A DNA stretch of 64,000 nucleotides from NCBI GenBank assembly GCA_964016885.1, contig OZ024755.1, forward strand, positions 40,176,001-40,240,000. Reading direction: 5' to 3'. The notes under the pieces are model-generated. The model did not search any database and was not told where the DNA came from. It was given only the letters and a program-made list of their open reading frames with translations. This DNA comes from Eledone cirrhosa. Lineage: Eukaryota. The position numbers were made by a program, and so were the translations under genes. Below, in pieces: positions 43,465 through 45,550 of the stretch; within the stretch, counting starts at the first letter, position 1, and every line of letters begins with the position of its first letter.

Positions 43465-43805
43465 AAATAAAATATATATATATATATATAAAATAAATAT
43501 ATATATATATATAAAATAAATATATATATATATATAACATAAATATATATATATATATATATATAATACATTTAGAAACACACAGATACATGCGGACACA
43601 CACATATATACATGAATGCATCCGCACCCAACTGTGAGTTAAGGGTGCCAACTTCACCGATGTTGCTCAATGAATGAGTGGGACAGACCAATTCAATTTG
43701 AACCAGACTGAACCAGTATCAGAGTTAAAAATACATTATGAAGAGAGAAGAAACATTTAGATATAATTAGTAATAAAATGTATCATACCCAAACTGTTCC
43801 TAAAT

Positions 43806-43893
43806 TCCTCGACTACGTAGTTTCGTGGCATAAACAAAAACAATATATCAAAGATATAGAGTCCTTGCGAGGTCTGCCGACTTATCAAGAGGA
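43806..43893 (-). ncRNA. U3-A8 hammerhead, unit 1
   Basis: Same motif as 3684-3771, on the minus strand. Confidence 0.8.
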
Positions 43894-44396
43894 TACCTCA
43901 TTTTACTAGTCTCAAGAACGCGTCTACACGACGTGAGAAAGAATCCCAAAAGGCGGAGGGGGAGATAGTCACGCGATATAACGGTCGAGAAACAGAGCTA
44001 AGCCTCTTATAACCACGAAAAAAATACCACGGAGGCGGAGGGGGTATTCATATCGAGGCCGCAGAAGAGGTAGTGAAGAAGGCGAGAAGTATGAGTAATG
44101 GAAGCTTTCCAGTTGTCCCCACACTTCAAAGATTGCTCGACCAGAGGGAGTTATTAATACATTTAGAAACACACAGATACATGCGGACACACACATATAT
44201 ACATGAATGCATCCGCACCCAACTGTGAGTTAAGGGTGCCAACTTCACCGATGTTGCTCAATGAATGACTGGGACAGACCAATTCAATTTGAACCAGACT
44301 GAACCAGTATCAGAGTTAAAAATACATTATGAAGAGAGAAGAAACATTTAGATATAATTAGTAATAAAATGTATCATACCCAAACTGTTCCTAAAT

Positions 44397-44484
44397 TCCT
44401 CGACTACGTAGTTTCGTGGCATAAACAAAAACAATATATCAAAGATATAGAGTCCTTGCGAGGTCTGCCGACTTATCAAGAGGA
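44397..44484 (-). ncRNA. U3-A8 hammerhead, unit 2
   Basis: Identical motif 591 bp further on. Confidence 0.8.
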
Positions 44485-44987
44485 TACCTCATTTTACTAG
44501 TCTCAAGAACGCGTCTACACGACGTGAGAAAGAATCCCAAAAGGCGGAGGGGGAGATAGTCACGCGATATAACGGTCGAGAAACAGAGCTAAGCCTCTTA
44601 TAACCACGAAAAAAATACCACGGAGGCGGAGGGGGTATTCATATCGAGGCCGCAGAAGAGGTAGTGAAGAAGGCGAGAAGTATGAGTAATGGAAGCTTTC
44701 CAGTTGTCCCCACACTTCAAAGATTGCTCGACCAGAGGGAGTTATTAATACATTTAGAAACACACAGATACATGCGGACACACACATATATACATGAATG
44801 CATCCGCACCCAACTGTGAGTTAAGGGTGCCAACTTCACCGATGTTGCTCAATGAATGACTGGGACAGACCAATTCAATTTGAACCAGACTGAACCAGTA
44901 TCAGAGTTAAAAATACATTATGAAGAGAGAAGAAACATTTAGATATAATTAGTAATAAAATGTATCATACCCAAACTGTTCCTAAAT

Positions 44988-45075
44988 TCCTCGACTACGT
45001 AGTTTCGTGGCATAAACAAAAACAATATATCAAAGATATAGAGTCCTTGCGAGGTCTGCCGACTTATCAAGAGGA
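44988..45075 (-). ncRNA. U3-A8 hammerhead, unit 3
   Basis: Identical motif 1182 bp further on. Confidence 0.8.
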
Positions 45076-45511
45076 TACCTCATTTTACTAGTCTCAAGAA
45101 CGCGTCTACACGACGTGAGAAAGAATCCCAAAAGGCGGAGGGGGAGATAGTCACGCGATATAACGGTCGAGAAACAGAGCTAAGCCTCTTATAACCACGA
45201 AAAAAATACCACGGAGGCGGAGGGGGTATTCATATCGAGGCCGCAGAAGAGGTAGTGAAGAAGGCGAGAAGTATGAGTAATGGAAGCTTTCCAGTTGTCC
45301 CCACACTTCAAAGATTGCTCGACCAGAGGGAGTTATTAATACATTTAGAAACACACAGATACATGCGGACACACACATATATACATGAATGCATCCGCAC
45401 CCAACTGTGAGTTAAGGGTGCCAACTTCACCGATGTTGCTCAATGAAGGAACAGTTTGGGTATGATACATTTTATTACTAATTATATCTAAATGTTTCTT
45501 CTCTCTTCATA

Positions 45512-45550
<39 letters not shown>

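Follow-up and report, generated by a model that had tools for sequence, protein, structure and literature searches.

The window analysed here, a 64,000-nt stretch of the Eledone cirrhosa genome, carries an insertion of repeated 591-bp units at 43565-45517. Its first arm (arm 1, 43565..45450), with the ribozyme (sense) strand on the minus strand, comprises three full units (43565-44155, 44156-44746 and 44747-45337) followed by a partial unit of ~110 bp that stops at about 45447-45450. The full units repeat with a period of 591 and differ from one another at a single base (43678), which bears out the near-identity noted in an earlier sequence-only reading of the same DNA. That reading took the whole insertion for a tandem array; this holds for the three units plus ~110 bp, but the end at 45447..45517 is an inverted 71-bp copy on the plus strand running from unit position 237 to 167 (arm 2), which overlaps arm 1 by ~4 nt at a head-to-head joint. 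Because 45447-45517 is inverted, the insertion is two-armed and head-to-head, and both of its outer ends are 3' ends of the ribozyme strand. The 3' end of arm 1, termed site A (unit position 1-2), adjoins (TA)n at 43565, and that of arm 2, termed site B, likewise adjoins (TA)n; in the sequence of the window, the target consists of a (TA)n-rich tract on the left (42573..43564) and a (TA)n tract on the right (45518..45563). Comparison of the duplicate segments to which this region belongs (~35.5-39.9 kb versus 40.6-46.2 kb, with pieces 91-98% identical) revealed an empty, plain TA tract at approximately 39270..39310, confirming that the element is absent from the duplicate. A second insertion of the family, also noticed earlier, lies in (TA)n at 3466..4011 and proved to be two-armed as well, with a B arm of 118 bp head-to-head with an A arm of 429 bp.

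Elsewhere in the window, there are minisatellites of 78 bp (33746-35546, 39899-40618 and 46180-49001), 48 bp (24907-27268) and 64 bp (15519-17056), the 78-bp one bordering the duplicated segment. Two reverse-transcriptase fragments and one PIF1-like helicase fragment occupy 28309-28968 (+), 57362-58603 (-) and 62610-63020 (-). A 1-2 kb repeat with several direct and inverted copies (86-93% identity) beside TA tracts at 4003-9964 and 17769-20225 is possibly another family of the Penelope-like element (PLE) type.

Each of the three full units carries one type I hammerhead motif on the minus strand (43806..43893, 44397..44484 and 44988..45075), and the predicted cuts at 43811/43810, 44402/44401 and 44993/44992 are exactly those claimed before. 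The motif is composed of a 5-bp stem I (UCCUC/GAGGA), a UUGAUAA core (U3-A8), a 57-nt stem II region, GAAA and stem III. Stem III, ACUACGUAGU, is a perfect self-complementary palindrome of 10 nt that does not fold alone and was computed to pair with a second copy at -12.9 kcal/mol. Searching Rfam returned nothing at gathering level and, up to E = 10, 13 weak matches of miRNA type, none of them to a hammerhead family; the ribozyme call thus rests on motif and structure. Judged by its sequence, the putative ribozyme is of the minimal PLE type, with the U3-A8 core, the short stem I and the long stem II region, and the C3-G8 core and loop 1-loop 2 contact of the canonical type I form (2020 definition) were not found in it. 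Both core halves are conserved in divergent copies, these having been selected by the opposite half. The predicted cut-to-cut monomer of 591 nt (44402..44992, minus strand) has a circular fold of -172.3 kcal/mol (z = -4.7 versus 40 dinucleotide shuffles). Among 19 divergent copies used for covariation, 97% of cells were still paired and helices were preserved chiefly through A-U to G-U change; three pairs showed two-sided change, a level that 74 of 500 shuffles equalled, so covariation was no stronger than in the control. Across all six frames, the circularised unit stays free of stops for at most 86 codons, in line with the earlier statement that no credible ORF is present. As for activity, weak cleavage in vitro has been reported for PLE-type minimal hammerheads (PMC4209133), and one of nine Xenopus retrozyme dimers was cleaved, according to a 2026 preprint (10.64898/2026.07.22.740005).

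The sequence-only reading had called for a genome-wide copy count and for a search for linkage to a reverse-transcriptase ORF. In the 3.0-Gb genome, the 19-nt core gave at least 6,126 exact matches against 0 for its reversed control, indicating that the motif is not due to chance and that the family has thousands of copies; the first 100 matches represent 55 loci, corresponding to ~3,400 loci if this ratio holds. The youngest copies are >99% identical, and subfamilies down to 72% identity have kept both the ends and a period close to 590. That thousands of dispersed copies share fixed ends rules out assembly artefact as a general explanation. Screening 187 element loci for PLE proteins uncovered no ORF-linked copy, excluding the possibility that the unit is simply the pseudo-LTR of an adjacent ORF. 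A PLE protein match was present within the flanks of 33 of these 187 loci, with families and orientations mixed, and each of four correctly oriented PLE neighbours that were examined ends by itself before the element. Conversely, the element lies near a PLE at three PLE loci (L087, L089 and L171), and the two examined are separate TA insertions. A degenerate stem III pattern with changed neighbours matched the 591-bp family in 27 of 28 cases and something unrelated in the remaining one.

Sequencing runs yielded some further observations. Two runs labelled as other organisms (X4 and X6) each gave one clean cyclic contig of 591/590 nt at a depth of ~8; they were not counted as evidence because a tandem DNA array also assembles as a cycle and the run type is unlabelled. 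In run X5, low-depth contigs depart from window 44100-44800 by T>C and A>G changes that lie in clusters (16 and 32 places); several of these changes are missing from the deep run X2. The pattern looks like hyper-editing on both strands and, with run type and individual unlabelled, it was not used as evidence.

We mapped the arm ends of 133 loci: the 38 closest to the query, 55 in their order along C1, 36 young loci retrieved with a junction pattern, the two of the window and two found by chance. Site B falls at unit position 167, 80 nt past the cut, and site A at position 2, 245 nt past the cut (591/1/2 across mapped loci), so that the two fixed ends delimit a 165-nt 'tail' (43566..43731, minus strand, in the window). 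Both sites read AAUGUAU and adjoin (TA)n. Genome-wide, 2,736 B ends are joined to TA; the A-end pattern gave 705 matches, a figure that covers one register only and does not count A ends. Together with the TA flanks (judged by eye) and the empty TA site, these joints identify an AT-rich microsatellite as the target. The 133 loci comprise 72 two-armed and 61 one-armed insertions. Among the two-armed ones, 66 are A+B, none is A+A, one is a complex B+B and the remaining five have an end that is truncated or odd, giving A+B in 66 of 67 pairs (p = 5e-19). The same held in the 55 loci picked without regard to shape, where every one of the 23 classifiable pairs is A+B (p = 1e-7). This outcome is not forced by the frequency of either end, given that one-armed loci split into 34 B and 26 A (plus one odd). 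The arms of the complex B+B locus differ at two sites and may thus stem from two events, and none of the first 100 of the 2,736 B-TA joints, inspected by eye, has a head-to-head B partner within 10 kb. The predicted circular fold keeps sites A and B apart (graph distance 46).

Unlike the fixed outer ends, the inner ends vary, with arms reaching up to 5,208 bp (8.8 units) and inner joints showing mostly 0-10 nt of overlap (microhomology), fold-back palindromes being found at 4 of 72 joints. Among A arms, 84 of 94 cross the cut site, as do 102 of 106 among B arms (186/200 in all), and the read-through junctions are exact in 308 of 313 cases. Taken together, these two counts make a covalent circle the simplest explanation. 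Of 207 arms, three end right at the cut, two of them after crossing earlier junctions; 0.35 were expected (p = 0.006 for that base), and 51 of 591 five-base windows are equally rich in ends. These three ends hint at partly cleaved linear multimers or at linear RNA with a ribozyme-made 5' end.

The architecture of the family, in which 3' ends are fixed, 5' ends vary and the tail is one-sided, is that of PLEs, for which partial tandems, an inverted truncated copy, microsatellite targets and a tail of 30-40 bp, often at one end only, have been described (PMC8557442, PMC3846280). A PLE tail corresponds in vitro to the gap between two internal start sites of reverse transcription; both target strands are cut and extended in vitro, and the PLE protein is predicted to be a dimer (PMC11167929). 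Having an inverted second arm and two fixed ends thus links the element to PLE machinery. By contrast, the reverse transcriptase plus GIY-YIG endonuclease ORF between pseudo-LTRs that marks an autonomous EN+ PLE was not found, and sequence homology to the unit was absent from 90 PLE loci, which sample part of the genome's families. Given that no PLE similarity and no ORF-linked copy in 187 loci were detected, we regard the element as non-autonomous, and conclude that it is very probably a retrozyme mobilised by a PLE.

A candidate helper is an autonomous PLE family of the genome (L194 at 4309-7122, with a 938-aa ORF, and L195, L199, L203 and L205), which is the best structural look-alike. It carries a U3-A8 hammerhead with a palindromic stem III, targets TA, ends 82 and 144 nt past the cut (a 62-nt tail) and shows A+B in 3 of 3 two-armed copies. 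Its nearest copies are 97-98% identical, somewhat older than the youngest arrays. We take this family to be 'Neptune-like' from its Cys-rich linker; its ORF had no match among solved structures, and Argonauta hians is among the few named homologues of the genome's PLE protein. Other potential partners were discarded for want of an ORF-linked copy of the element: the family of a PLE remnant in the window, the GIY-YIG loci, and the loci retrieved with the degenerate stem III pattern and an old-subfamily query. The remnant itself (51210-52771, +) is a broken PLE with a GIY-YIG domain; a first look at its family gave 60,366 candidates, with open frames of ~830 aa, and the pseudo-LTR seems to contain a further variant hammerhead with a CCGAAGA core and a palindromic stem III. 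More hammerhead motifs with a palindromic stem III were seen at L204:7563 and 8074, L204:1637 and L209:3957, one pair of them in tandem units of ~500 bp; they probably represent other retrozyme families of the genome.

To distinguish how tandem units arise, variants were classed as fixed (all copies of a locus) or single (one copy) in 97 young loci of at least 97.5% identity, 88 of which are informative in that the site is covered twice. The 39 distinct locus-fixed variants include 18 A>G on the ribozyme strand and 9 T>C, whereas the 123 single-unit variants include 3 A>G, 25 T>C, 29 G>A and 17 C>T, making A>G strongly enriched among fixed variants (18/39 vs 3/123, Fisher p = 1.5e-10). The contrast was repeated in three sets (8/13 vs 2/52, 14/29 vs 0/20 and 3/5 vs 1/51), the nearest-to-query one being biased to the query's own alleles and the other two unbiased, and at sites with at least three copies (12/21 fixed vs 1/76 single). 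Variants in some units and not all numbered 11. In 51 young two-armed loci, 24 differences are common to both arms (17 A>G) and one is arm-specific; array-wide A>G spans up to 12 units over both arms, and at one locus four A>G changes are private, three of them inside 16 nt. Sites of recurrent A>G (unit positions 226, 443, 481, 498 and 561) appear on differing backgrounds, A>G sites being present in 24 of 25 four-gamete-incompatible pairs.

RNA editing is heavy in cephalopods. The array-wide A>G changes point to A-to-I editing of one monomer that was then read repeatedly into both arms. Such a monomer would most simply be circular, which suggests indirect genomic support for a circular template. 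The neighbour preference of ADAR was mostly non-significant at these sites (5' G, p = 0.36; 3' G, p = 0.09), the lack of a 3' A alone reaching significance (p = 0.007), and long-term A-to-G drift between subfamilies is weak, with none in the 92-96% group. Structural selection may contribute to the A>G excess, though as sole cause it would require a transmission advantage of 34-fold. Among single-unit variants, the strand bias (T>C 25 vs A>G 3, p = 0.003) fits G-U mispairing by the reverse transcriptase on each pass, editing of antisense RNA being a possible alternative. In a few loci (L189, L193, L246, L249 and L032), a small number of variants occur in scattered units, sometimes of both arms, possibly through conversion, template damage or assembly error.

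These data bear on whether a circle is needed at all, as the same PLE-mobilised element could instead be copied from an uncleaved or partly cleaved linear multimeric transcript of a homogeneous array. Ribozyme cleavage is dispensable for PAc insertion in vitro, unprocessed RNA being the main substrate (PMC11167929), and besides the three arms that end exactly at the cut, two more end within 2 nt of it. Furthermore, 58 of 97 young loci agree with the majority type in all their fixed bases, which means that the identity of units is no proof by itself. However, editing of a multimer would mark single units, the very class in which A>G is scarce, and would not extend over 12 units of both arms; selection acting on such a template would again face the 34-fold requirement. 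We therefore consider a linear template unlikely. Less likely still, in our judgement, is the insertion of one unit followed by growth or homogenisation of the array as DNA, through slippage, unequal exchange or conversion, in the manner of a minisatellite. DNA-level growth has been proposed for vertebrate retrozymes (10.64898/2026.07.22.740005), and conversion can account for the scattered variants in both arms of L189 and L193, but the exactness of the outer ends A and B against a varying inner end across thousands of dispersed sites, the fixed variants spanning inverted arms and the single-unit strand bias expected from per-unit reverse transcription make it very improbable. Least credible of all is that the units are ordinary pseudo-LTRs of 5'-truncated insertions of an undetected autonomous PLE: every end feature is PLE-like, the genome has many PLE families and the protein searches scored best candidates only, yet the units join head-to-tail at 591 bp with no intervening ORF, a subfamily 72-76% identical to the unit already has this period and identical ends, and the stem III pattern retrieved almost nothing outside the family.

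The full mechanism that we favour, in which a PLE enzyme starts at two fixed sites and reads a single edited RNA monomer many times, is reasonably likely. Monomer excision and circularisation are known for other animal retrozymes. A tandem locus would be transcribed, and neighbouring hammerheads are predicted to pair via stem III and to excise the 591-nt monomer, which would be ligated to a circle. ADAR may then edit a few adenosines of the monomer, as the mutation spectrum suggests. A PLE endonuclease-reverse transcriptase would open a (TA)n tract, with the target ends priming at A and B, one each; here the A+B outcome is what is observed, and priming is the presumed cause. Each reverse transcriptase would pass the ribozyme junction and roll on for a variable distance, the observed lengths being up to 8.8 units, and the two cDNAs are joined head-to-head, mostly over the short microhomology seen at inner joints. 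In its most specific form, a dimer of the PLE enzyme would prime both (TA)n strands at two sites on one ADAR-edited 591-nt circle and write the edits of that molecule into every unit of both arms, a joint proposition on which we are evenly divided. If true, the genome is a record of rolling-circle retrotransposition, RNA editing becomes heritable sequence change, and the lineage diverged by >25% while it spread as a circle that encodes no protein.

Compared with known systems, the element resembles animal non-LTR retrozymes in having non-coding tandem units with one type I hammerhead each, thousands of copies, and a proposed PLE dependence and circular RNA intermediate (PMC7229834; 10.64898/2026.07.22.740005), the present element being known from DNA alone. 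Short head-to-tail repeats at many dispersed loci, a hammerhead motif in every unit and the lack of protein coding are retrozyme features that it shows, and at 591 bp the unit lies inside the 51-972 bp reported for non-LTR retrozymes (10.64898/2026.07.22.740005), so that the earlier remark on described units being mostly shorter was overstated. Its ribozyme sets it apart: with a short stem I, a long stem II and U3-A8, it belongs to the PLE type rather than to canonical type I, a difference that the 2026 preprint accommodates by admitting minimal hammerhead models (10.64898/2026.07.22.740005). Inverted arms are a feature of the 591-bp element: the word 'inverted' is absent from the accessible text of PMC7229834, and the available part of the preprint describes no inverted arms, fixed ends or target (10.64898/2026.07.22.740005). 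The preprint views animal non-LTR retrozymes as non-autonomous PLE sequences, which the element fits, and reports that 24 of 57 Xenopus families match transposable elements, nearly all PLEs (10.64898/2026.07.22.740005), whereas no pseudo-LTR homology to an autonomous PLE was found for the 591-bp unit in the 90 PLE loci. Since it fails the strict canonical-hammerhead definition of 2020 and had no homologous partner among these loci, we file it as a retrozyme variant, and its variant features are the PLE-type ribozyme, the 165-nt tail and a near-strict one-A-one-B rule.

With EN+ PLEs (PMC8557442, PMC3846280, PMC11167929), the element shares partial tandems, an inverted 5'-truncated arm, a one-end tail, a microsatellite target and a hammerhead shortly before the 3' ends; it lacks their reverse transcriptase-endonuclease ORF, its tail is far longer (165 versus 30-40 nt), and its arms reach 8.8 units. 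Fold-back palindromes are rare at its joints, in contrast to their frequency reported for rotifer Penelope. The hammerhead of Cercyon of Schistosoma mansoni (PMC4209133) is also alike, with U3-A8, a 5-bp stem I, a long stem II and a palindromic stem III suited to dimers, but it occurs mostly as single motifs, and that of the present family in perfect short tandems with a 10-nt palindrome. The candidate helper family shares the variant hammerhead, palindromic stem III, TA target and one end per arm, and its first end lies 82 nt past the cut versus 80 nt here, with no detectable sequence similarity between its members (938-aa open frame, 62-nt tail) and the unit. The description of a young, mobile, non-coding hammerhead tandem given by the sequence-only reading stands, but the weight that it gave to the core was overstated, because U3-A8 is a published PLE form with ~1,300 matches in S. 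mansoni (PMC4209133).

Circular RNA templates were proposed in 2014 for tandem PLE copies (PMC4209133) and in 2020 for animal retrozymes (PMC7229834), and the 2026 preprint holds that the mechanism remains open (10.64898/2026.07.22.740005). In the literature outside subscription journals and preprint supplements, we found no analysis of array-wide versus single-unit spectra or of the A+B rule. The former represents a genome-only test of circular templates in PLE transposition; the latter sharpens 'tail often at one end only' to a near-strict rule that constrains how the PLE enzyme handles two target strands, and the family supplies a small defined RNA for reconstitution. The U3-A8 core, the unit size and the retrozyme kind are already known from these systems, and the mutation record is what the 591-bp element adds to them.
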